From: an uncultured virus (IMG/VR IMGVR_UViG_2778261679_000001)
Taxonomy: Duplodnaviria > Heunggongvirae > Uroviricota > Caudoviricetes
Virus record (IMG/VR): IMGVR_UViG_2778261679_000001
Reading direction: 5' to 3' (one strand)
DNA length: 53,854 nt
In this document: piece by piece, positions 3,401-42,687 of the stretch
Position numbering within the stretch: position 1 is the first letter of the stretch
Layout: every line of letters begins with the position of its first letter
Program-made: the position numbers and the translations under genes
Notes under the pieces: generated by a model
Seen by the model: the letters and a program-made list of their open reading frames with translations, nothing else
Database searches by the model: none
Told to the model about the DNA's origin: nothing

Positions 3401-3892
3401 ATGCTTCTCGAAGAAAACGAAATTACAGAAGAAACCATTAACAAAAAAACACATAGTCGAACCGTTTTAATCCTACCAACAGAAGGTGTTGAAATTGGAG
3501 CTGTTTTTGAAGCGAATTTTAACGTGGAAAAAGTCCTTGACGAAGAAGATTCAAATTGTTTTCTTTCTGACACTTCTCTGATGGCAGAAGTTCGCCCGTC
3601 TAAACATGCTTTTATCATTTCCGATATTAGCACTATTAATTTTGATACTTTTGTCAAACCGCAAGAAGTTTTTGACTTTGAAGATATCAAAGAAGAATCA
3701 AAAGGTGTTATTTATCAATTTCCAATGGGTTTTGACACTGAAAATGATAGCTATGACGAAGTTATGAAAAAAGTTGGCATTGACACTTTGCTTTCTTGGT
3801 TCGACGACGAAAAAGACCCATTTATGAGAATCTTTAACGAGATTCATAAAATTTATGGCAATGACCCGAAAAACTTTATCTTAAAAAAATAA
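3401..3892 (+). CDS. hypothetical acidic protein
   Basis: 163-aa ORF, AAGG RBS. Confidence 0.75.
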   Translation: MLLEENEITEETINKKTHSRTVLILPTEGVEIGAVFEANFNVEKVLDEEDSNCFLSDTSLMAEVRPSKHAFIISDISTINFDTFVKPQEVFDFEDIKEESKGVIYQFPMGFDTENDSYDEVMKKVGIDTLLSWFDDEKDPFMRIFNEIHKIYGNDPKNFILKK

Positions 3893-3911
3893 TTGTTTTA
3901 AAAATAAATAA

Positions 3912-3946
3912 AAAGCCTTGTCTATACAGGGCTTTTTTTGTATAAT
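3912..3946 (+). promoter_or_regulatory. fused terminator hairpin / sigma70 promoter
   Basis: AAAGCCTTGT-CTAT-ACAGGGCTTTT; TTGTCT 3918-23, 17 nt, TATAAT 3941-46. Confidence 0.7.
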
Positions 3947-3975
3947 AGCCTTATCGTTTTTTTTAAGGCTATCTC

Positions 3976-4425
3976 ATGATTTTTTATCGAATTGAATGCA
4001 ATGGTTTAGGTCTTTATGATTCAGGTTGTGGTCATAGAGCGCAAGACTTAACAACTGCAGAACATTCTATTTCTCAGCAATCACCTGAAAGAGCTTTTCC
4101 CGACATCTTCAATTATTTGAATGATGATCGCAAAAACTATTACTTTGCATTCCCTACCATTGAAGCAATTTATGAATGGTTCAACACTGTTGAATCTATT
4201 GCATATCTTGAGTTTAGAGAATGTGAAATTTTGAAATATGAAATTGATGGTGATTATCATATTTCTGGCAATCAGCTTATCTATCGCAAAGGAAAAGAAA
4301 CATTTATTGAAAAAGTGCCTTTTTCTTATGATAATCTGGAAAAACTTACACACATTAAAATCCATATTCCTTATAAATTTCGAAATTACCTTATCGAAAA
4401 CAACTTAACAGAGTATTCATTATGA
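3976..4425 (+). CDS. hypothetical protein
   Basis: 149-aa ORF, AAGG RBS. Confidence 0.75.
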   Translation: MIFYRIECNGLGLYDSGCGHRAQDLTTAEHSISQQSPERAFPDIFNYLNDDRKNYYFAFPTIEAIYEWFNTVESIAYLEFRECEILKYEIDGDYHISGNQLIYRKGKETFIEKVPFSYDNLEKLTHIKIHIPYKFRNYLIENNLTEYSL

Positions 4426-4838
4426 ATGAAATTGAAAAATTCCTAAAAGAACAAAACTTACCAAGCGACATTGAAAACGCTATCACCAAAGAATTTATCA
4501 CTCGATTTTTTATAGATAATCCAGAAGAGTTTTCAAAGATTTCTCAGCGAGTTTTCAATCAACAAACACAAAAGATTAAAGACTTGGAACAGAAGCAAAA
4601 ACAGACGCATGTTGCTTTAATGCCTGTCATTTCAATGTGCATGTTTGGCAATCAAAATTCAACAAACGTTTCATCGTTCCGTGGTCTTCTTGGTGATCGT
4701 AAAACAGAAGATCGAGTTGACGAAAATATGGAAAAAGTATTTCAACACTTAACTGTTGATAAAAAAATTGTTTTAAAATTGCGTGAAGATGGGGGATTAG
4801 ACGTTCCAGATTCACTCAGAGAAGAAACAGAAGAGTAA
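4422..4838 (+). CDS. hypothetical protein
   Basis: ATGA overlap with previous gene. Confidence 0.75.
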   Translation: MNEIEKFLKEQNLPSDIENAITKEFITRFFIDNPEEFSKISQRVFNQQTQKIKDLEQKQKQTHVALMPVISMCMFGNQNSTNVSSFRGLLGDRKTEDRVDENMEKVFQHLTVDKKIVLKLREDGGLDVPDSLREETEE

Positions 4839-4972
4839 CTGATTGATTTTAAATAGATAATTTTATTTAAAAAGTCACATTATTGTGGCTTTTTTTATTG
4901 ATTTTTGATTTGTTTTATTGTATAATTAAGCCATAGATTAAATGATTAGGTTGAAACTAAATGGAGGTAAAA

Positions 4973-5464
4973 ATGACTTTAAAAAAACTTTTTTTGATTA
5001 TCGTTTTGATTGTTTCTGCTCTATTGGTATGGTTTCTTGATAAACCCCTTGCAGTAGCTACTAATGGACTGCCTTTTCAATTAGAAAAAGAAATTGATTT
5101 TGAACATCGTGGGGAATACATTCAAATATCCGAGTATGCCCAAAAAGCAGGGTATGACTTAGGCATTCGTTTTATTCCTGACGAAAATTTAGTTGGTGAT
5201 TATAACTATGACGATTATTTCATTTTATATCAAAAAGATGAGATGCCGTCTAATATTGTAACTAGAAGAGTGTTTGACTCCATTGAGGAATGTCAAAAAA
5301 ATGCTGAAAAAGTCTTTAATATTTTAAATAAAGACGAGATTTACGAAGAAAAAGCAAATGGTTCAGTCCTAACAAACAGAACCGAGAGCATTCAATGGTC
5401 TTGTCACCAAAGTATTAAAGAAAAAAACAAATTTCAACAATATATAAACTACTACTTAAATTAA
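4973..5464 (+). CDS. membrane-anchored or secreted hypothetical protein
   Basis: GGAGG RBS; N-terminal basic plus hydrophobic segment. Confidence 0.7.
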   Translation: MTLKKLFLIIVLIVSALLVWFLDKPLAVATNGLPFQLEKEIDFEHRGEYIQISEYAQKAGYDLGIRFIPDENLVGDYNYDDYFILYQKDEMPSNIVTRRVFDSIEECQKNAEKVFNILNKDEIYEEKANGSVLTNRTESIQWSCHQSIKEKNKFQQYINYYLN

Positions 5465-5470
5465 AAAAAT

Positions 5471-5504
5471 AAACCTTGCTTTTTAAGCAGGGTTTTTTTA
5501 TAAT
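5471..5504 (+). promoter_or_regulatory. fused terminator hairpin / sigma70 promoter
   Basis: TTGCTT 5476-81 within hairpin arm, 17 nt, TATAAT 5499-5504. Confidence 0.7.
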
Positions 5505-5539
5505 AAATATATCCTACATTTAGCAACTAAAGGTTTATT

Positions 5540-6109
5540 ATGAGCAAGAAATCTCGTCTTTTTGCCGACAAAAAACATCAAGAAGCAGGAACGCTATTTA
5601 ACGGCAAAAGATACCGTGTTCATACTGATGGCGTTGCTAACATTGTTAAAAACACAATTATCACTTACCCGTCATACGTAGACAGAATGCAACTATTAAC
5701 CTATTCTGTTGAAACTGCCGATTTACACGATACACTTGAAGATACAGACACTACATTTGAAGAACTTGTTTCAGAATTTGGTGAAGTCGTTGCTAAGTCT
5801 GTTGATAACGTAACTGATATTGACGCAGAAAATCGTGAAGAACGTAAAAGACTTACCATTCAAAGATTTGCTCATTTTGAAGTAAGTGTTCTATCCGAAC
5901 TTATTGCATTGATTGTAAAACCTGCTGATCGCTACCATAACTGGTACACAGCTATCAAGCTAAACCAGAAAAAATACATTAAAATGTATTACCGTGAATA
6001 TCCTATATTCAAGCTTTCTGTCTACCGTCCTGATTTGGTCGAAAAGCTATGGAGCGACTTAGACGAACTTGATTTATATGTTCGAAAGAACTACAATTTT
6101 ACTCGATAA
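5540..6109 (+). CDS. HD-domain small alarmone hydrolase, (p)ppGpp hydrolase / Mesh1-like
   Basis: H...YxxH, LHDTLEDT, FGEVVAKSVDNVTD and VKPADRYHN match the RelA/SpoT hydrolase domain. Confidence 0.75.
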   Translation: MSKKSRLFADKKHQEAGTLFNGKRYRVHTDGVANIVKNTIITYPSYVDRMQLLTYSVETADLHDTLEDTDTTFEELVSEFGEVVAKSVDNVTDIDAENREERKRLTIQRFAHFEVSVLSELIALIVKPADRYHNWYTAIKLNQKKYIKMYYREYPIFKLSVYRPDLVEKLWSDLDELDLYVRKNYNFTR

Positions 6110-6225
6110 TTAGATTTATTTTAAAAAAGGCTATTTTTATAGTCTTTTTTATTGACCTTTATTAATAATTCTAGTATTATTTATGCAAATTAAAATATAT
6201 TTTGTAAACAACAAAGGTAAATACC

Positions 6226-6750
6226 ATGTCAAAACAAGCTAAACAATTCGCTATTGCTAAATCGTCAAATGGCACAATTGGTCTAATTACTTCAAAAGAA
6301 ATGGTAGACCATACTTACCCAGATCAAACAGAACCGACTCAGGTTTGGAAAGGCGTTATCATCCAACCTAATACATTTACGGGACGTAATGGCTCGATCA
6401 TCGAAGCAAAAGCAGGTGGTCTATGGACTTCTTCTAACCCAGAAGTTATTGGCTATGCCGACCCTGAAATGATTGCACAGCTTGTGCAAGACTCTAATGA
6501 AGTTCAGCAGTTCTCTATCGCTAAATCATCAAATGGCACTGTCGGTCTAATCACTTCAAAAGAAATGGTAGATCATATCTATCCTGACAAAGAAGAAGCA
6601 ACTAAGGTCTGGAAAGGTGTTATCATTCAGCCTAATACCTTCACTGTTGGCGAAGACAAGGTTATTGAAGCAAAAGCGGGTGGTCTATGGACTTCTTCAA
6701 ATCCACAAGTCGTTGGTCATATTGATCCTGCAATGATTGAAGCTGCTTAA
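6226..6750 (+). CDS. hypothetical protein with two near-identical ~88-aa domains
   Basis: QFxIAKSSNGTxGLITSKEMVDH...GGLWTSSNP occurs twice. Confidence 0.8.
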   Translation: MSKQAKQFAIAKSSNGTIGLITSKEMVDHTYPDQTEPTQVWKGVIIQPNTFTGRNGSIIEAKAGGLWTSSNPEVIGYADPEMIAQLVQDSNEVQQFSIAKSSNGTVGLITSKEMVDHIYPDKEEATKVWKGVIIQPNTFTVGEDKVIEAKAGGLWTSSNPQVVGHIDPAMIEAA

Positions 6751-6776
6751 AAATAACTTGTTTTAAAAACAAATAA

Positions 6777-6810
6777 AAACCTTGCTTTCATAGCAGGGTT
6801 TTTTTATAAT
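6777..6810 (+). promoter_or_regulatory. fused terminator hairpin / sigma70 promoter
   Basis: TTGCTT 6782-87, 17 nt, TATAAT 6805-10. Confidence 0.7.
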
Positions 6811-6839
6811 AGTCGTATCATAAATAACAAGGTTTTAAA

Positions 6840-7181
6840 ATGAAAAATTTATCAGTTTCTATTAAAGGCACTTATGAAAGTTGTGACCGTAGACGCTTAT
6901 TCGTTTATCTCGAAAACGCTGATATGTCGAATATTGATAATGTTCCTTGTTATGCAGGTGAGCATCTTAGAGATGCTATCCAACAAGTTTTTCAACTTGC
7001 CGACTTTTTTGAGCTAGAACGACCTAGCCTTGATCACTTAATCTCTGACCGTCTTTTTTCAAAAGACGAAATCAATTCTGCAATTGAAGACGTTAGCGGA
7101 ATGATTGAAATGTTTGAACGCAACAAACAAATGAGAATTGAAATGAAAAAAGAAAGTAAGAAACAATCAACTTCTAAATAA
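6840..7181 (+). CDS. hypothetical protein
   Basis: ORF with AAGG RBS. Confidence 0.75.
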   Translation: MKNLSVSIKGTYESCDRRRLFVYLENADMSNIDNVPCYAGEHLRDAIQQVFQLADFFELERPSLDHLISDRLFSKDEINSAIEDVSGMIEMFERNKQMRIEMKKESKKQSTSK

Positions 7182-7285
7182 TTTGTTTTAAAAATAGTAA
7201 AATAAACCTTGTTTTTTAATTTTTGTTTTGCTATTATATATTCTCAGTCAGGGCATTCACCACTATCTAAGCAAAGGGCAAGATT

Positions 7286-7831
7286 ATGACTAACGCACAA
7301 AAAGAATTGGTTTCTCTAATTAACTCTCTAAACAACGCTAACAACGTTGAGGGTTCTTTATGGTTTCAAGCTTTGTCTACTGATCTAGCTTACTGGGCTA
7401 AGTTTGGTGTGGAAACTGTTAAAGATTTCCAAGCAAAAGCGGCTGCTTTTGCCGAGCATCTTGATGCTATGGCTAAAAAACAAGAGGTAGAAAATGTTTC
7501 TATTGGTCTTGTTACTGACCTAGAACACTGGAATGTTCGTGGTATCCAAACTGTTGAGCAATTGGATCATTACCTAGCTCAATCAACCCACTATGACCTT
7601 TACAAAGAGGTTAATGGGATTCGTCCACGTTGGTTTAAGTATGACGAAATGACCACGGAAGAAATCGAAAAGGAAATCGACTCTCTTTGTAACCAAATGG
7701 AGAAAGAAGAACAATGGCAAAAGGAAATTGAAGAAGCGGAGCAAAAGGAACACGAAGAACGTAAAGCTCGTAATGCTTATCAGCCTAACTTGGCTTTGAG
7801 TGGCTTAAAAGATTTAATGGACAAGCAATAG
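7286..7831 (+). CDS. hypothetical protein with internal repeat and acidic coiled coil
   Basis: LSTDLAYWAKFGVETV / LVTDLEHWNVRGIQTV. Confidence 0.8.
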   Translation: MTNAQKELVSLINSLNNANNVEGSLWFQALSTDLAYWAKFGVETVKDFQAKAAAFAEHLDAMAKKQEVENVSIGLVTDLEHWNVRGIQTVEQLDHYLAQSTHYDLYKEVNGIRPRWFKYDEMTTEEIEKEIDSLCNQMEKEEQWQKEIEEAEQKEHEERKARNAYQPNLALSGLKDLMDKQ

Positions 7832-7893
7832 CTTGTCCTTTTAAAAAGTCCTTTCTCATTTTACTTCAAATCATAGATTAATCGAGAATAATC

Positions 7894-8442
7894 ATGAAAA
7901 AAAACAAAATCGATCTGATTAAGTTTCATCGAAATGCTATTTTTAAAAATGCAGCTAAAACATTTAAACCAAGTATTCGCAACGAGTTTATGCGTATCAC
8001 TCAAATTATGTTAAATGAAAACCCTACTCTTTGGTTGAAGATTTTTGAATTTGAAACAATGAATCTAAATCGAAAAGAACTAGGCGAATTTCATAGTCAG
8101 GTTAATGAACTTCGAAAAAACCTTAGAATCAAAGATCACTACCCTATTCTTACAACAGAGCAAGAAGAGCGAATTTATAAAGAGTTCTATTTCAGTTGTT
8201 TTATTCGAGACGAAGCGAACTCAAAATCTGCTTGTCTTACTACTTTGCGTGATGTTTCCTATCGTTATGACTTTCAATATTTCCCTGTTGAAAAGATTCA
8301 AAATCTGCATTACTTGCGCAGGAACATTCATGCAGAAAAGAAGATTCGTAAACACCTTAACAATCTTCTGAAAATTTTGCCTAAAATGATTGTTAGTGAA
8401 ATAAACAAAATTGACGCAAAAAAACATAATGTGGCTGTTTAA
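7894..8442 (+). CDS. hypothetical basic protein
   Basis: 182-aa ORF. Confidence 0.7.
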   Translation: MKKNKIDLIKFHRNAIFKNAAKTFKPSIRNEFMRITQIMLNENPTLWLKIFEFETMNLNRKELGEFHSQVNELRKNLRIKDHYPILTTEQEERIYKEFYFSCFIRDEANSKSACLTTLRDVSYRYDFQYFPVEKIQNLHYLRRNIHAEKKIRKHLNNLLKILPKMIVSEINKIDAKKHNVAV

Positions 8443-8476
8443 TACAGCCTTAAACACACGTTAAAAGGTTTTTGTT

Positions 8477-8746
8477 GTGAATCAGATTGATATTGCTAAT
8501 CCACTTAATGCGGCTTTAATTGAAGATGCTGAAAGCGTTTCTAACACTCTTAATCAATCTGGTTCTGAACCTTTTTCATTTCTTGCTTTGCTTGTTCTTT
8601 TAATTTGTGTTGCTCCTGTCCTATTTTTCTTCTTTCGTTCTCTTGGTAGCGACACAAAAAACAATTCAACCCCATTGCACCTACCCGATAGTTTCCTTAA
8701 AAACTTAAAAATTAACGATATTCGTTTTAAAAACAAAAAAAAGTAA
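8477..8746 (+). CDS. single-TM hypothetical protein
   Basis: GTG start after AAGG; hydrophobic segment. Confidence 0.6.
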   Translation: MNQIDIANPLNAALIEDAESVSNTLNQSGSEPFSFLALLVLLICVAPVLFFFFRSLGSDTKNNSTPLHLPDSFLKNLKINDIRFKNKKK

Positions 8747-8818
8747 ATTACCATTATACTTCTCTTACTTGTTTTGATATAATATCTCTATCTTATAAAA
8801 GACAGAGAGAGTTTTGTT

Positions 8819-9157
8819 ATGTCAGAATTGATTAAACATGAAAACGGTGGTCATTCTTTTTCAATCCCTAAAAGTGCAGTTGAAAAATTAGGTTCTCAAC
8901 TTGTCCTTATCAACCTAGATCGAATTAAAAACTATTTTGAGACTATGGTTAAACACTATCCTGTTAAAGCCGAAAATCTTCCTGCTCTTAAAGACTATGC
9001 TAATATTCAAAGTGAAACATTGCCTAACACGTATGTAGTTTGTTCAGAGACAGATTTTAAGGTATTTATTGACGGAATAAAAAACAATGTCGATTTGATC
9101 ACTCGTAATGATTATTTGGCGAACAACAAAATTAATTCATACCACTTTGAGGTTTAA
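8819..9157 (+). CDS. hypothetical protein
   Basis: ORF with promoter and GAGAG RBS. Confidence 0.75.
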   Translation: MSELIKHENGGHSFSIPKSAVEKLGSQLVLINLDRIKNYFETMVKHYPVKAENLPALKDYANIQSETLPNTYVVCSETDFKVFIDGIKNNVDLITRNDYLANNKINSYHFEV

Positions 9158-9158
9158 A

Positions 9159-9566
9159 ATGGATATTCGAAAAGCAAATGAACTACTGGCTTCTATGATT
9201 AAAGATATCTATGAAGACCATGACGGAAAACTTTCAAAGAAGACTGGTTTAAAAGCAATGAATCTTGTTGCTACAAGCCCAGAGATTCAACGTTTGATTA
9301 ATATTGGTAATTATCCTGCATTTCGCAAACAAATCATTGCAGAGCTTAATGAGCAATCTGCAGAACTTAAAGAATCAAATGTTGTTTTTGCTGATTTACT
9401 TCGTGACCTATACACTAGTCGAACTGGTCGCTGTAAAAAATCAACTGCTAAAAAAGTTATGGTTTTTATGGAAAATAATTCAGATTTTCAACACCTTGCC
9501 AATATCGGAAATTACGAAAAACTAGAAACTCAGATTTCCGAAGATTTAAACAAAAAAGTTGCTTAA
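9159..9566 (+). CDS. hypothetical protein with two internal repeats
   Basis: GAGG RBS; both repeats end in QxLxNIGNY. Confidence 0.75.
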   Translation: MDIRKANELLASMIKDIYEDHDGKLSKKTGLKAMNLVATSPEIQRLINIGNYPAFRKQIIAELNEQSAELKESNVVFADLLRDLYTSRTGRCKKSTAKKVMVFMENNSDFQHLANIGNYEKLETQISEDLNKKVA

Positions 9567-9677
9567 TTTTTGTTTTTTTAAAACAAACCCCTTGCTATCC
9601 TAGTTAGGGGTTGCTATAATTACCACTCACTTGCAAAGACATTCTTTGTTAATTATCAAGCAAATTGGACGTTTATT

Positions 9678-10316
9678 ATGACTAGCCTATTTCACGTTGT
9701 TAAATTTGAAGAAATTCCTTACGAAAAATTTGATCACGCAGTTGTTTGCACAACTCTTGATCTAGATAGTGCTATTGAAAAAGCGGAAGAAGTGCTTGAA
9801 AAAGATATCTTTGATAAGTTTGGATACCGAGCAGAAGAAGAATCTGGTGTTTACATCGCTGATTTTAGACGTATCGCTGAATATGCTTCAAAAGAGATTT
9901 TTAAGCGTAAAAGGTGTTATGGTAATGAGCAAAATGTATTCATTCTTGAAGTGAAAGCAGGAGAACTTATTTCACTGCCGACTTTAACACATGAAAACAA
10001 AGGTGTTATTTGGCAAGCAAACGACGAAACGTTGTTTAAAATCTTCAACAAACACCTTGACCTTATTATGGTTCGAGACAATCTTGATATGCTTCCTAAA
10101 TCTGAAAAAACGATTCTTTGGGAGCAATTCAAGAAAGAAAAAAGCCTTCTTTCCAATGTTAGCCCTACATTGGAGCGTTTAAAGGCTCTTGGTTGTAAAA
10201 ATCGTCGCCTTTCTGTTAAGAACAAGCTTGAACTTAATATGAATGGTGCTGATATTTGGGCTATGACTTCAATCAACAAGCAAGAAGAAATGCTTTATCA
10301 AACCTATGAAGCGTAA
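9678..10316 (+). CDS. hypothetical protein, paralog of 32156-32764
   Basis: Shared LDLIxxRDxLxxLP and GAxxWxMT motifs. Confidence 0.8.
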   Translation: MTSLFHVVKFEEIPYEKFDHAVVCTTLDLDSAIEKAEEVLEKDIFDKFGYRAEEESGVYIADFRRIAEYASKEIFKRKRCYGNEQNVFILEVKAGELISLPTLTHENKGVIWQANDETLFKIFNKHLDLIMVRDNLDMLPKSEKTILWEQFKKEKSLLSNVSPTLERLKALGCKNRRLSVKNKLELNMNGADIWAMTSINKQEEMLYQTYEA

Positions 10317-10344
10317 TTAAAATCAAAAAAAAGATAACAAAAAG

Positions 10345-10398
10345 CACAATTCATCCCCGCCCTAGAAACGGGCGAGGGTTTCTTGTGGTTTATTCGCT
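10345..10398 (+). mobile_element. possible solo IS200/IS605-superfamily end hairpin (remnant)
   Basis: CAATTCATCCCCGCCCTAGAAACGGGCGAGGGTTTCTTG resembles ends of TnpB/IscB elements; no transposase nearby. Confidence 0.35.
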
Positions 10399-10552
10399 AA
10401 AATCATAAAATCCCTTTCAAATCTGGAGCCTTTTTGGGTTCAAGATAAACTTAAAAAAGGTGCAAAATACAAAGGAAATATTGCTTAATCACTTCACTTT
10501 TTAGTTATTTTTATTTATAATATAGGCACTTAACCAATGAGAGGAAATTTCA

Positions 10553-34629: not shown

Positions 34630-34908
34630 ATGTCATTAGATGCTACATTCCAAATTAAAAATCCACATGGACTACACGCAAGACCAGGGGCTTTATTGGT
34701 TGCAGAAGCGAAAAAATTCGAATCAAAAATAACAGTGCTTAATTTAGAAAACAATTCAGAACCTGTCAGTGCTAAAAGTTTAATGAAAATAATGACGCTT
34801 GGTGTAAAAAACGGTCATAAACTTCAATTTACTGCTGACGGTGGAGACGCAAAAGAAGCGTTAGACGCTATTGGTAAAGCTATTGATTCTGGTTTAGGCG
34901 AATCATAA
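34630..34908 (+). CDS. HPr-family PTS phosphocarrier, stand-alone FruB/FPr-type domain
   Basis: KNPHGLHARPG (active His), SAKSLMKIMTLGVK, C-terminal SGLGE; AGGAGG RBS. Confidence 0.92.
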   Translation: MSLDATFQIKNPHGLHARPGALLVAEAKKFESKITVLNLENNSEPVSAKSLMKIMTLGVKNGHKLQFTADGGDAKEALDAIGKAIDSGLGES

Positions 34909-38639: not shown

Positions 38640-38724
38640 GCGATCATGGTGGAATTGGTAGACACAAGGGATTTAAAATCCCTCGCTATATGGCGTCCGA
38701 GTTCAAGTCTCGGTGGTCGCACCA
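38640..38724 (+). tRNA. tRNA-Leu(TAA)
   Basis: Cloverleaf with long variable arm, AGGGA-TTTAAAA-TCCCT, CCA end. Confidence 0.95.
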
Positions 38725-38827
38725 AATAAAGTTGAAAAGTGAATAAAAAATCATTTGACTCTTTGTTTGAAGGTAACTATAATTGATTACAGATAACAAT
38801 AGTTATTTAAGAATTGTTTGGTTGATT

Positions 38828-38900
38828 GTTAAGTTCGTCTAGTGGTCAAGGACACCAACCCTTCACGTTGGTAACAGTGGTTCGAATCCGCTACTTAACA
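38828..38900 (+). tRNA. tRNA-Glu(TTC), atypical (C33, no encoded CCA)
   Basis: GTTAAGT/ACTTAAC acceptor; CCAAC-CCTTCAC-GTTGG; GGTTCGAATCC. Confidence 0.8.
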
Positions 38901-38914
38901 GTTATACATATTAT

Positions 38915-38991
38915 GCACCCTTAGCTCAGTTGGATAGAGCACGTGCCTTCTAAGCATGTGGTCGCAGGTTCGAATCCTGCAGGGTGTGCCA
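38915..38991 (+). tRNA. tRNA-Arg(TCT)
   Basis: Canonical cloverleaf, loop CTTCTAA, CCA. Confidence 0.95.
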
Positions 38992-39026
38992 TCTTTAAGC
39001 ACTTTTCACCAAGAGTGTTTAAAAAT

Positions 39027-39217
39027 GGTAAGGAAGGAAGGCTTTTATTCCAATAGCTCGTAGCTATGTTCGCAGATAAGCCGTCAAATTAATAGTAGGT
39101 TAGTTAAATCCTGCCTCTCTACTTTTAAGAGGGAAAGAAGATTTACTCTGGGTGTCGAAAGCCTATTCGCAGGTTAACGAACTATTTAATGAGACTGGAT
39201 GTAATTCTGCCCTTACC
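39027..39217 (+). ncRNA. ~190-nt rod-like structured RNA within tRNA operon
   Basis: GGTAAGG/CCTTACC closing stem with nested stems TTCCA/TGGA, CTCGT/ATGAG, GTTCG/CGAAC, AGTAGGTT/AGCCTATT. Confidence 0.55.
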
Positions 39218-39227
39218 TGAAATATAT

Positions 39228-39304
39228 GCTTCCTTAGCTCAGTTGGTTAGAGCGTCCGACTCATAATCGGTAGGTCACAAGTTCAAGTCTTGTAGGAAGC
39301 ACCA
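39228..39304 (+). tRNA. tRNA-CAT (Ile2-like or Met)
   Basis: CCGA-CTCATAA-TCGG; resembles bacterial tRNA-Ile2; CCA. Confidence 0.9.
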
Positions 39305-39335
39305 TTTTATTTAATTTTGGTTTAAAGGTATCAAG

Positions 39336-39671
39336 ATGAAAAGAATCACTCTTTTACAACAGGCTTTTCGAGAATTTCAATGTGCTTCACAATGGGTTAC
39401 AAGTAATCCTAGCCGATACGTTGAATGTTTGAGCAAAGCAGAGTCAATTATCGAAATCTTAGAAATAGAAGATTGTGGATCAGTTGGCGGATTTGATAAA
39501 GAGAATAAATGTAAAGCTGTTACTGGCTTTAAACTTTATGACCGTTTTTTAACTGTTATAAGAAAAAACAATGAATATTCTGATTTGAAAGACGAATGTG
39601 AATTTACCGTTGAACTTCTTGGTGAATACTATAAGGTAATTCATAGTTTTCGAAGTGATATTTTGAGATAA
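39336..39671 (+). CDS. hypothetical protein within tRNA cluster
   Basis: AAGG RBS, 111 aa. Confidence 0.7.
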   Translation: MKRITLLQQAFREFQCASQWVTSNPSRYVECLSKAESIIEILEIEDCGSVGGFDKENKCKAVTGFKLYDRFLTVIRKNNEYSDLKDECEFTVELLGEYYKVIHSFRSDILR

Positions 39672-39770
39672 TTTTTAAAATAAGTTGATTTCTAAAACGT
39701 TTTTAGGTATTATATCTTCATTAATTAACATCTTGAAAGTGTTTTTAAAAAATCAATTTTTAAAAGTTTA

Positions 39771-39837
39771 AATTGTATCTTCTAGCGGTCTAGAATACTC
39801 CGACTGTTGAAATGTTGGTTCCAATCCATCTACAATT
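39771..39837 (+). pseudogene. tRNA-like remnant lacking the anticodon arm
   Basis: AATTGTA/TACAATT acceptor, D-like arm, degenerate T loop TTCCAAT; no CCA. Confidence 0.55.
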
Positions 39838-39858
39838 TAATAGTTTTTTAAACAATAT

Positions 39859-39935
39859 GCTCCCTTAGCTCAGTTGGTTAGAGCGTCCGACTCATAATCG
39901 GTAGGTCAATGGTTCAAGTCCATTAGGGAGCACCA
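39859..39935 (+). tRNA. tRNA-CAT (Ile2-like or Met), second copy
   Basis: Same D and anticodon arms as 39228 copy; compensated acceptor and T stems; CCA. Confidence 0.9.
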
Positions 39936-39985
39936 TCTTTAAGACTATTTTTGAAAGTGTTTTTAAGATAAAACTTATTAAAAAT

Positions 39986-40054
39986 CGCTCTGTAAGGCTT
40001 TGTCAGGGACTCTAAATCCTACGGCAGAGGGTTCGAATCCCTCCAGAGCGACCA
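39986..40054 (+). tRNA. atypical tRNA with CUA (amber) anticodon and reduced D arm
   Basis: CGCTCTG/CAGAGCG + ACCA; GGGA-CTCTAAA-TCCT; GAGGG-TTCGAAT-CCCTC. Confidence 0.7.
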
Positions 40055-40071
40055 TTTTTATTTCAAGTCGT

Positions 40072-40090
40072 GCGCCCTTAGTTCAGTTGG
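40072..40090 (+). pseudogene. 5' fragment of a tRNA (Arg-like)
   Basis: GCGCCCTTAGTTCAGTTGG, then similarity stops. Confidence 0.45.
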
Positions 40091-40252
40091 GTGTGATACT
40101 TTTGAGCTGTGTATTTAATTTATTTTGCTCTTTTATAATAAAATATTACCAAAAAATGATTTAAAAATAGTTTATTTAATCCTTGTTATTCTTGATTATC
40201 TCAACTATAATTTCTTTATTAAATCGAGACAAGTTCTTGATTTGAAAAAAAT

Positions 40253-40337
40253 GCGGGTATGGTGGAATTGGTAGACACAAGGGATTTAAAATCCCTCGCT
40301 ATTTGGCGTCCGAGTTCAAGTCTCGGTATCCGCACCA
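40253..40337 (+). tRNA. tRNA-Leu(TAA), second copy
   Basis: Nearly identical to 38640 copy except acceptor stem; CCA. Confidence 0.95.
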
Positions 40338-40385: not shown

Positions 40386-40868
40386 ATGTCTAATATTAAC
40401 TTATTGGAAAAAATTTATGAACAATTTTTAATAGATAAGGATAAAGATAAAGCTTCTAACCTTATCTATGAAGAGTTTAAACGTTCTAATGAAACAGATT
40501 TTTCTGTTGTTACAGTTGTTTTTGGTAATGAATTTTTACCCATTCAAATAAGGTTAAAATGGGAACACATTCTTTCTGTTGCTTCTAAATCTTCTTTACC
40601 TACAATTATTTTATCAAATCTCATTATGGTTAATGAAGATTTCAAAGAAGAAGCTTATTTGGGATTAGAGTTCTTAAAAGAGTATAAGAAAGAACAATTT
40701 GAATCACTAAAAGAAGAAAGTATATCTTATTATATAGAAGTTCAAAAAGAAAATAATTCAAAATTTGAAATGAACAAAGAATCTATATTTGGATACCTTG
40801 AATACTCTATTTCTGGCTCTCCTTTTTATGAGGAAATTGTTTCAAGATTTAAGAGTATTTATGATTAA
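40386..40868 (+). CDS. hypothetical protein
   Basis: AAGG RBS, 160 aa. Confidence 0.7.
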   Translation: MSNINLLEKIYEQFLIDKDKDKASNLIYEEFKRSNETDFSVVTVVFGNEFLPIQIRLKWEHILSVASKSSLPTIILSNLIMVNEDFKEEAYLGLEFLKEYKKEQFESLKEESISYYIEVQKENNSKFEMNKESIFGYLEYSISGSPFYEEIVSRFKSIYD

Positions 40869-40919: not shown

Positions 40920-40949
40920 TTGATTTTTTAATGCTAAATAGGATATACT
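40920..40949 (+). promoter_or_regulatory. sigma70-like promoter of the long ncRNA
   Basis: A-rich UP element, TTGATT-N18-TATACT. Confidence 0.65.
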
Positions 40950-40956
40950 TTATATC

Positions 40957-41667
40957 AAGGCGGTAAGGGAGACCTTACGAAAAACAATAACTAACTTAAA
41001 GGTGATTAGATATTTGACTTGGTTGATGTCCAAGTCACAGTAATGATAGCTTAAATTACTTGCACATAAATAAGTCGAGTATAGCCAAAAGCAACAAAAA
41101 AACAGTTTCTAACTGGCTTTTGATTACTGGTAGAGCATTAGATATTACATTATTATTTTATAATTTTAATTTAAAGGTGCGACACTTGATTTGGAGGTTA
41201 TCTGACTCGCTTCCATTGATGTCTTAGAGTCTATAACGAACTTAAAATGGTGAATAGATATCTGGATTGGCTGACGCCCAATTCACAACAATGAAACTTA
41301 GCTGTCCCTTATTGTTGGTAGAACGTCTGGTTATAAAATTATAATTTTTTAACTTAAAAGGTGCGACACTTGATTTGGAAGTTCCCTGACTCGCTTCCAT
41401 TGATGTCTTAGAGTCTTCACAAAACTAGAATGGTGAATAGATATCTGGATTGGTTAACGCCCAATTCACAACAGTAAAACTTAGTTGTCCTTTATTGTTG
41501 GTAGAGCGTTTGGAATTGAACATTTATTTAATTTTGAAAACTAATAGAATCGACAGAGGCTAACGATCAAAGCCTACTCCCTATGGAATCATTTGGTTCG
41601 TTCATTGCGGAGAGTCCAGAACCAAAACCGTTCGAACTCCTACCTCCGTGTAGGAGTTTGCCGCTTT
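40957..41667 (+). ncRNA. ~710-nt modular ncRNA with five homologous pseudoknot-like units
   Basis: Own promoter, 5' GNRA hairpin, repeated units with covarying stems, 3' hairpin, no long ORF. Confidence 0.6.
41170..41513 (+). repeat. imperfect tandem duplication, period ~184 bp (units B+A)
   Basis: GGTGCGACACTTGATTTGG at 41176 and 41360; GGTGAATAGATATCTGGATTGG at 41249 and 41432. Confidence 0.9.
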
Positions 41668-41746
41668 AGACGTTTTTTTGTTGCTTTCTTTTCCTAACTA
41701 TCATATAATCTATTCACTCCTTAAAGATAATTCAAAAGAGATTATT

Positions 41747-42136
41747 ATGATTGACACTACTGAAATTGATATCACTGACCTAATTCTTATTATCGACAAA
41801 AATCATAGACCAGAGCACCCTTCTTTGAAAGAAGTTGTTAAAGAAGAAGCGATTGATATGTTAATGTCAAATCTTCCTGAATCTTTTAAAAACTCCGCAA
41901 AGTTTCAAAAACTTATCAATAGTGATTCACCAGTTCAAGAGATACTTTTTGTTTTCTTTGGTAATCCAGATGAAGACGAACTTTCTATCGAACACCCTTA
42001 CATTTCTATCGTTAATGATAAAATTGAAATGACGATCCATCATTACTATACTTGTGGGGCTAATGATGAGCTTAAAGGCGTAGATATCCTTACACACAGC
42101 TTTACATTAGAAGAATTTGAAAGCAAATTAGGATAA
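41747..42136 (+). CDS. hypothetical protein
   Basis: Start moved to the ATG after GAGA. Confidence 0.7.
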   Translation: MIDTTEIDITDLILIIDKNHRPEHPSLKEVVKEEAIDMLMSNLPESFKNSAKFQKLINSDSPVQEILFVFFGNPDEDELSIEHPYISIVNDKIEMTIHHYYTCGANDELKGVDILTHSFTLEEFESKLG

Positions 42137-42276
42137 TTTAAAATTCGAAGCTGATAGATTGAAAAGAAAACTATTAGACGATATCTAAAAAAAGGCTACC
42201 TTGCAGCCTTTTTTGTTGTTTTAAAAACAATAAATTGCTATAATAATCTTATCTTAAACAAACAGAGATTAAAAAA

Positions 42277-42687
42277 ATGAGTCTAGTTAAAGTATATGTT
42301 TCAGCCAATTTAAAAGAAGACGCTCTAAAACAAGCAAAAGAACTTAAGACTAAAACAAATCAAACTCATTATGTTTGGGAGTATCCTAACCACAAAATTT
42401 CTGTTGTTGGAACTAGTAAAGGTATTTCTAGCTTTTTTGTAAAAGAAGAAGACCTTTACCCACGACACAAAGACTATGTTTCTGGCAATGAAACTCCTAT
42501 TAAAGTCATCCTTTCAGAAGACCCAAAAGAAGATGCAGATCGTGCTGCTCTTGCTGTTGCCTTTAATTCTAGTGACTCTATTACTGTTAAATCAATGTCT
42601 CCTGACATTGAAGGACAAGCACTTGTTGATTATGACAATCGAATTGTCGCTATTTTCCTAGACAAACGAAGAGAAATGATATTATAA
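42277..42687 (+). CDS. hypothetical protein
   Basis: 136-aa ORF. Confidence 0.75.
   Translation: MSLVKVYVSANLKEDALKQAKELKTKTNQTHYVWEYPNHKISVVGTSKGISSFFVKEEDLYPRHKDYVSGNETPIKVILSEDPKEDADRAALAVAFNSSDSITVKSMSPDIEGQALVDYDNRIVAIFLDKRREMIL

Follow-up and report, generated by a model that had tools for sequence, protein, structure and literature searches.

The window analysed here is a 53,854-nt stretch of DNA (positions 62001-115854 of contig C19 in assembly G000) and contains an array of small RNA units beside a cluster of tRNA genes. The full-length unit (U0) and the two truncated units (A1 and A2) belong to a real structured RNA family of mobile-element tRNA islands, uncatalogued as far as we searched. 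We consider it very probable that this is a genuine structured RNA acting in trans. The evidence lies in the paired sequence changes of its stems, in homologs on unrelated elements and in the genes that surround the homologous copies.

Array layout and conserved fold

The features between the tRNA cluster and the next gene are listed in Table 1. A single promoter candidate precedes the array, in which one full unit is followed by a B+A pair present in duplicate. The initial annotation proposed a stand-alone RNA of ~710 nt composed of five homologous pseudoknot modules. The unit starts it gave, 41001 (U0), 41176 (B1), 41249 (A1), 41360 (B2) and 41432 (A2), are found in the sequence, as are the GTAAGG-GAGA-CCTTAC hairpin, the quoted stems with their loop-tail complements, and the AU-rich linkers (3-27% GC, compared with 34-47% GC in the units). 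B1-A1 and B2-A2 form a tandem duplication of 183-184 nt (87-91% identical), so the five units represent three sequence types. The promoter claimed upstream is present as a site, but a scan gave 21 such sites against 16.4 expected in shuffles. The candidate promoter of the next gene scores under the threshold of the same scan. In the close strain L025, the array promoter candidate is identical and lies immediately 3' of tRNA-Leu; the 5' hairpin there has an altered loop and a retained stem. The hairpin probably shields the 5' end. Between tRNA-Leu and the array promoter, the window has a 160-aa ORF (40386-40868) without a Pfam match. The ORF is missing in L025 and in contigs of three of the four RNA runs examined, where tRNA-Leu abuts the promoter, and it is thus a variable insertion. 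A GC-richer non-coding stretch of ~190 nt (39028-39218) lies between tRNA-Arg and a CAT tRNA and is closed by a GTAAGG/CCTTAC stem identical to that of the array 5' hairpin (fold z -1.3); it has no Rfam match and no homolog in two megaplasmids or the phage.

Table 1. Features of the array region, with positions in the window
Feature	Position	Strand	Description or basis
tRNA cluster beside array	38640..40337	+	Leu-TAA x2, Glu, Arg-TCT, CAT x2, one CTA tRNA-like gene
Sigma70-like promoter candidate	40920..40949	+	TTGATT-18-TATACT; 9/12 matches, not significant by itself
5' hairpin	40963..40978	+	Read from sequence
U0, full-length family member	40999..41149	+	Covariation across homologs; 5' single strand with AGATATY
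U0 helix P1	41015-22/41030-37
U0 helix P2	41038-44/41123-29
U0 helix P3	41057-62/41076-81
U0 helix P4	41086-92/41116-22
U0 pseudoknot (likely)	41025-28/41136-39
B1, second unit type	41176..41232	+	Candidate small pseudoknot or hairpin
A1, truncated member	41247..41337	+	Model match 57.5 bits, E 1.8e-13
B2, copy of B1	41360..41416	+	91% identity over 69 nt
A2, truncated member and copy of A1	41430..41520	+	Model match 59.7 bits, E 4.6e-14
3' domain	41547..41672	+	GC-richer, hairpins and late U run
Promoter candidate of next gene	41681..41709	+	TTGCTT-17-TATAAT; read from sequence

The core fold consists of an 8-bp hairpin (P1) whose 7-nt loop reads YURAYGY, of helix P2 next to it and of an optional two-helix arm (P3 and P4) on P2. 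As claimed at the outset, the stems change sequence yet keep pairing: across seven U0-type sequences, 224 of 224 cells are paired, and 11 of the 32 pairs show two-sided changes (four in P1, three in P3 and four in P4). P2 gains two two-sided changes once the A units are added. None of 500 shuffles scored as high, a count that is not a probability because the seven sequences are related and the structure was derived from them; slid controls pair in 24-46% of cases. Contigs of all four RNA runs examined carry a double change in P1 (41018 C>T with 41034 G>A) that is independent of the alignment of seven, although the four runs may share one strain type. Taken as a whole, the region 40957-41690 is more stable than its shuffles (z = -4.25, 20 shuffles), but single units are not (z -1.5 to +0.6), and the structural evidence is therefore covariation, not energy.

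The 3' tail of the core can pair with the hairpin loop as an H-type pseudoknot. Four central pairs (G-U/A-U/G-C, A-U, U-A/C-G and G-C) are kept in all 11 full copies, the locus L020 having been dropped as chance, and a fifth pair fails in two of the 11. With one two-sided event behind it, the pseudoknot is likely rather than proven. Loop-tail pairing had been described for every unit; it is in register across homologs (11 of 11 full U0 and A copies), but unit by unit it reaches only P 0.03-0.6 against random 16-mers. The pseudoknot columns are constant among the U0-type copies, so diversification of the loop is confined to the A units. The hairpin loops can also pair with the tails of neighbouring units.

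A covariance model (R1) was built from the seven U0-type sequences only, with A1 and A2 outside the training set. R1 finds both A units (Table 1) and, with filters off, gives no match at B1 or B2 down to 7.9 bits. The five homologous modules thus reduce to three sure homologs (U0, A1 and A2) and a doubtful second unit type. B and A have a common 5' start and a similar loop heptamer. The 5' likeness is weak, since 14 other places in 2.45 million positions score equally with an upstream GGTG and the pattern was chosen post hoc; the fold of B is marginal. In the plasmids, phages, IMG/VR and metagenomes scanned, B has no homolog outside close strains. B could have diverged from the other units or could be an RNA of a second type.

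The A units correspond to the core without P3 and P4; P1, P2 and the pseudoknot are kept, and an 18-nt loop takes the place of the arm. The extra ~75 nt of U0, described by the initial annotation as an insertion, is present, but the direction of change is reversed: the long form occurs in all five lineages, and it is therefore probably ancestral, with A a truncation. GGTG and TAGAR do not hold as a constant unit signature, as neither C11 nor L019 keeps them invariant and TAGAR in B falls in another register relative to the loop-tail helix. Neither the inclusion of the 3' domain in one RNA of ~710 nt nor the pairing of the ends (AAGGCGG/CCGCTTT) gained support, with no distant homolog or covariation found for either. 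The 3' domain gave 0 loci in the IMG/VR pattern scan and no homolog elsewhere in our searches. It could mark where the transcript ends or be an element of its own.

Homologs, carriers and genomic setting

Homologs of U0 are found in four other lineages: contig C11 of G000, megaplasmids of V. parahaemolyticus, a 125-kb phage (G001) and an unrelated metagenome contig (L019). Identity between lineages is 62-88%. Three of 72,556 plasmids match, all of them V. parahaemolyticus plasmids of ~0.9 Mb, two of which were retrieved for analysis. IMG/VR contributes the one phage; its terminase has 63% identity to Salmonella phage 7-11 and Aeromonas LAh_6. The matches also include L021, L024 and L025, which are close strains of the window and of C11. 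Each megaplasmid and the phage has one significant copy. Four of the five lineages are single-copy without an array, and the array is a local duplication. All known occurrences of this ~150-nt RNA gene are on mobile elements or metagenome contigs (plasmids, IMG/VR phage and metagenomes), the mobile carriers being large elements of marine bacteria, both giant plasmid-like ones and a phage. The phage also carries eight tandem paralogous genes with a common N-terminus (77754-88242), which we take to be capsid-like.

For host chromosomes, a pattern scan of 185,579 species genomes gave one match, which the model rejected. A blastn search of 5,426 E. coli genomes with U0 found nothing, and blastn with four queries against 50,697 phages returned chance matches only; those in Mammaliicoccus and Pseudomonas phages were examined and rejected. 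In IMG/VR pattern scans, one pattern gave 0 loci and three others only the 125-kb phage. Further patterns gave 11, 6 and 5 loci; one of the five is the 125-kb phage and the remainder are chance by eye, 16 of these 21 being rejected by the model as well and five near-duplicates, from the set of 11, being left out. The metagenome scan gave eight loci. L022 and L023 represent the window and C11 themselves, and L018 and L020 are chance (L020, 19.8 bits, E 0.007, has broken stems).

The initial annotation did not recognise the family, and an Rfam search of the window and homologs at gathering and E-value thresholds agrees, giving only chance matches over the units. No text containing any of four core 15-18-mers and no description of the RNA was found in the literature searched, in which journals are incompletely covered. 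The name of the carrier plasmid occurs in one paper, which concerns a different plasmid of the same strain. The supplements of a catalogue of viral candidate RNAs (PMC10690425) gave no match in the files searched, with the three largest outside the search. According to the part of that paper covered, its pipeline required at least three IMG/VR regions, as against the one with the core RNA found here.

The RNA lies in or beside tRNA clusters in four of the five lineages. The megaplasmid copy is 11 nt upstream of tRNA-Leu, inside an 18-tRNA cluster, and the phage and L019 copies are ~80 nt upstream of a tRNA (11-84 nt over these three lineages). The C11 copy is located 3.9 kb from the closest tRNA. 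Among its own signals are a promoter-like site, 5' hairpins and a hairpin resembling a terminator, and the gene beyond it is convergent. In the other three outside lineages, tRNAs follow. This bears out the initial view of a stand-alone RNA rather than a leader. Placement as a riboswitch is likewise absent, with tRNAs or a convergent gene downstream in four of five lineages and no Rfam family match. Short structured-looking stretches lie immediately 3' of the C11 and phage copies (L001 4760-4620 on the minus strand and L004 3150-3215). Within the tRNA cluster of megaplasmid L002, several GC-rich non-tRNA stretches are seen (4880-5980 and 6470-7400), none with an Rfam match at the gathering score; one of them ends in a tRNA- or tmRNA-like 3' arm near 5790-5845.

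Assembly G000 looks like a mixed bin, with contigs of ~33% GC, one of which carries the sole ribosomal L2 gene, and nine contigs of 26-32% GC. The latter (C1, C2, C11, C12, C15, C19, C21, C22 and C25) total ~1.2 Mb. Most of them have tRNA clusters or tandem arrays with up to 10 copies of one tRNA, and one has a permuted tmRNA. For C19 and C11, 9-10% of the ORFs have counterparts, at ~33% identity, in an 883-kb V. parahaemolyticus megaplasmid, which has similar tRNA arrays. The low-GC contigs appear to come from a giant element that was binned together with an unrelated bacterium, and we infer that the window belongs to a giant extrachromosomal element whose host is a marine gammaproteobacterium. 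Genes resembling tRNAs, with a CTA (amber) anticodon, occur in the window (39986-40054, with a shortened 5' arm) and on C11 (30399-30475). The window also has a stand-alone HPr-domain gene (34630-34908) that shares 69% identity with the HPr portion of Vibrio FruB.

Array depth in RNA sequencing runs

Among 23 sequencing runs listed, 16 recorded as RNA contain part of the stretch; four of these, metatranscriptomes from four studies, were examined. The data are contigs from runs chosen for containing the stretch; repeats leave their depth summed or collapsed, and some DNA may be present. Read with these bounds, and among the contigs listed, the array exceeds the downstream gene in contig depth 13-37x in run X1, 9-37x in X2 and 4-16x in X4; in X7, the array is covered at depth 5-7. 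Short contigs over the array in X1 reach depths of 3,861-10,524 among those listed. A 5.5-kb contig of the same run, at ~95% identity, covers 41487-42675 at depth 286, so a close relative is present in X1. The high depth stops near 41517, 5' of the 3' domain, and in two of the four runs the 3' domain and the downstream gene share contigs of lower depth. The contigs listed span some linkers, and no monomer or processed ends are seen in them. As a weak line of evidence, the depths hint that the array RNA is abundant.

Possible functions of the RNA

Six of the 214 phage ORFs match the assembly of the window and five match the megaplasmid. The only one to match both, a metallophosphoesterase, is distant from the RNA, so no dedicated partner gene travels with it, and the RNA therefore would act alone or on a host factor. 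Pfam search for ToxN was negative in four of four records (CptN, TenpN and AvcD lay outside this search), and the downstream ORF (41747-42136) has no Pfam match. The RNA has repeated tRNAs (Leu-TAA, Arg-TCT and CAT) as neighbours. The plasmid-like elements also have an RNA-repair gene, that of the Tpt1/KptA RNA 2'-phosphotransferase; its distance to the RNA is ~7 kb in each of the two megaplasmids searched and ~20 kb on C11, and the gene was not found in the phage. tRNA arrays and RNA repair are typical cargo of elements that counter host defences cutting tRNA or other RNA.

Our best single guess, which we hold tentatively and at less than even likelihood, is drawn from this context: the RNA would be an abundant trans-acting decoy that titrates a host protein, probably a defence ribonuclease, and its copies would be amplified and diversifying. 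We favour it because the RNA is partnerless, its neighbours are tRNA and RNA-repair genes, and the amplification and loop-tail drift recall phage phiTE, which escapes ToxIN through amplified pseudo-ToxI repeats (PMC3594212, in part). Repeats of tenpI can be non-identical and each functional (PMC13682666, in part). The precursor would be cut within the AU-rich linkers, and the stable units would bind the host protein via the conserved core (AGAUAUY, UUGG/CCAA, the loop and GGWAG). Binding would titrate the protein, the likeliest target being a defence ribonuclease or a similar RNA-binding defence factor, and the RNA would protect translation together with the spare tRNAs. Additional copies would be predicted to give a higher dose and altered loop-tail sequences a wider target range. 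The decoy reading is weakened by the pattern scan of 185,579 genomes, since a copied antitoxin should have a homolog on host chromosomes and none was found there. The single-copy state of four of the five lineages, the local origin of the array by duplication, the constancy of the pseudoknot columns among U0-type copies, the absence of KptA from the phage and the lack of a match to ToxI, or to the TenpI rows compared, also count against it.

A likeness of the unit start to ToxI, raised by the initial annotation, does not amount to kinship. The array resembles pseudo-ToxI and type III antitoxins in its tandem units with a likely pseudoknot, AU-rich spacers, location on a mobile element and local amplification, and in three of five lineages the U0 start is identical to the opening 8 nt of the ToxI repeat (PMC3401426, in part). 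In U0, however, this 8-mer is single-stranded, its complement is absent, and it is not conserved in C11 or L019. There is no Rfam ToxI match, the layout differs, U0 has a helix inserted in loop 3 and, in contrast to pseudo-ToxI, the family usually is single-copy. Repeats of ToxI-family antitoxins measure 34-36 nt and those of TenpI 49-55 nt in the rows compared, against 90-150 nt for U0 and A and 57 nt for B; the TenpI repeat of V. cholerae given in PMC3401426 does not resemble U0 by eye. Two core 10-mers occur 0 times among the stored rows of the type III antitoxin table. AvcI, the RNA antitoxin of AvcD, is alike in its Vibrio setting, and U0 is close in size to its minimal form of ~171 nt; the two primer ends of avcI, which are the whole comparison drawn from this source, are not recognisable in the unit by eye (PMC10511110, in part). 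That the RNA is an antitoxin for an unrecognised toxin of the element itself, as an addiction module, is very improbable. The promoter, repeats, hairpin with U run and following ORF do give a type III-like layout, but ToxN is missing from the four records, the downstream ORF lacks a Pfam match and has its own promoter candidate, and in other carriers its place is taken by tRNAs or a convergent gene. Most improbable is a cis-regulatory leader or a non-functional relic of duplication. Single units are not unusually stable and neither the B units nor the 3' domain has outside support, which speaks for such a reading; the two-sided stem changes over five lineages and the C11 copy, with no same-strand ORF downstream, largely refute it for U0 and A, whereas it may hold for B and the 3' domain.

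The location in tRNA islands in four of five lineages, on elements that bear tRNA arrays and tmRNA, would suit a translation helper, or a ligand of the ribosome or tRNA machinery that tunes host translation with no defence protein involved. We regard this as unlikely: the units have no T-loop motif and no tRNA, tmRNA or Y RNA match, and the 7-nt loop, anticodon-like in size, is apparently occupied by the pseudoknot. A position 11-84 nt 5' of a tRNA in three lineages and a compact pseudoknotted core with invariant junction nucleotides would be in keeping with an unrecognised self-cleaving or ligating ribozyme that would process tRNA-island transcripts, like the theta (minimal HDV-like) ribozymes, small pseudoknotted RNAs beside phage tRNAs (PMC10879173, in part). 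This is quite unlikely, as no Rfam ribozyme matches, the tRNA spacing is variable with C11 far from any tRNA, and neither the nested double pseudoknot of the HDV type nor a hammerhead core fits any of eight units (by a descriptor without a positive control); covariation favours a plain 8-bp P1. An HDV-like reading in which 5' GTGAAT pairs with ATTCAC was dropped because homologs break the pairing. ROOL and GOLLD are structured RNAs without a known function near phage and prophage tRNA islands; ROOL has no known protein partner (PMC12286853, in part). The same niche, the lack of a partner gene and the ability of loops to pair with neighbours' tails would fit an RNA-only scaffold or oligomer of this kind, with loop-tail pairs between units or molecules. 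We find that improbable: ROOL and GOLLD are ornate RNAs of several hundred nt, whereas the units here (90-150 nt) are much smaller and simpler, of another fold, arrayed and without an Rfam match, and loop and tail co-vary inside one unit, as an intramolecular fold predicts. With ROOL, GOLLD and the theta ribozymes alike, the niche is common and the fold is not.

In preQ1-II-type riboswitches, the hairpin loop pairs with the 3' tail across an intervening helix. That topology (hairpin, inserted helix and tail pseudoknot), the conserved single strands and the lack of a downstream gene to regulate would accord with a trans-acting small-molecule aptamer, such as a sponge that takes up a nucleotide alarm signal. 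This too is improbable; no riboswitch family matches, preQ1-II included, and the pairs that would form the pocket differ between A and U0. We know of no natural trans-acting small-molecule sponge of such a kind. A modular counter-defence sponge common to giant plasmids and phages of marine bacteria, arrayed, with a fixed protein- or signal-binding core, swappable pseudoknots and, as its target, a host defence component for which no RNA inhibitor is known, we consider rather unlikely.

The orphan RNAs of phage and plasmid tRNA islands are few, and this family extends them by one that is small and supported by covariation. It is readily tested, being short, having a natural minimal form (A) and being present in cultured V. 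parahaemolyticus strains. If the decoy reading is true, RNA counter-defence would be common to unrelated mobile elements, and finding the partner of the RNA might bring a host defence factor to light; should the RNA prove to be a ribozyme or an aptamer, it would represent a new class. Ro60 was considered as a partner and rejected: the T loop of Y RNA and Yrl is absent from the units, and the TROVE gene is on another G000 contig and in 0 of 3 other carriers. Directly 5' of the Ro60/TROVE gene on that contig, C12, are two similar units of ~65 nt (L043 525-680) with the pattern CGGTTACTTC...ACCGA...TTCTCC; these have no Rfam match at E<=1 and are candidate Y-like RNAs.
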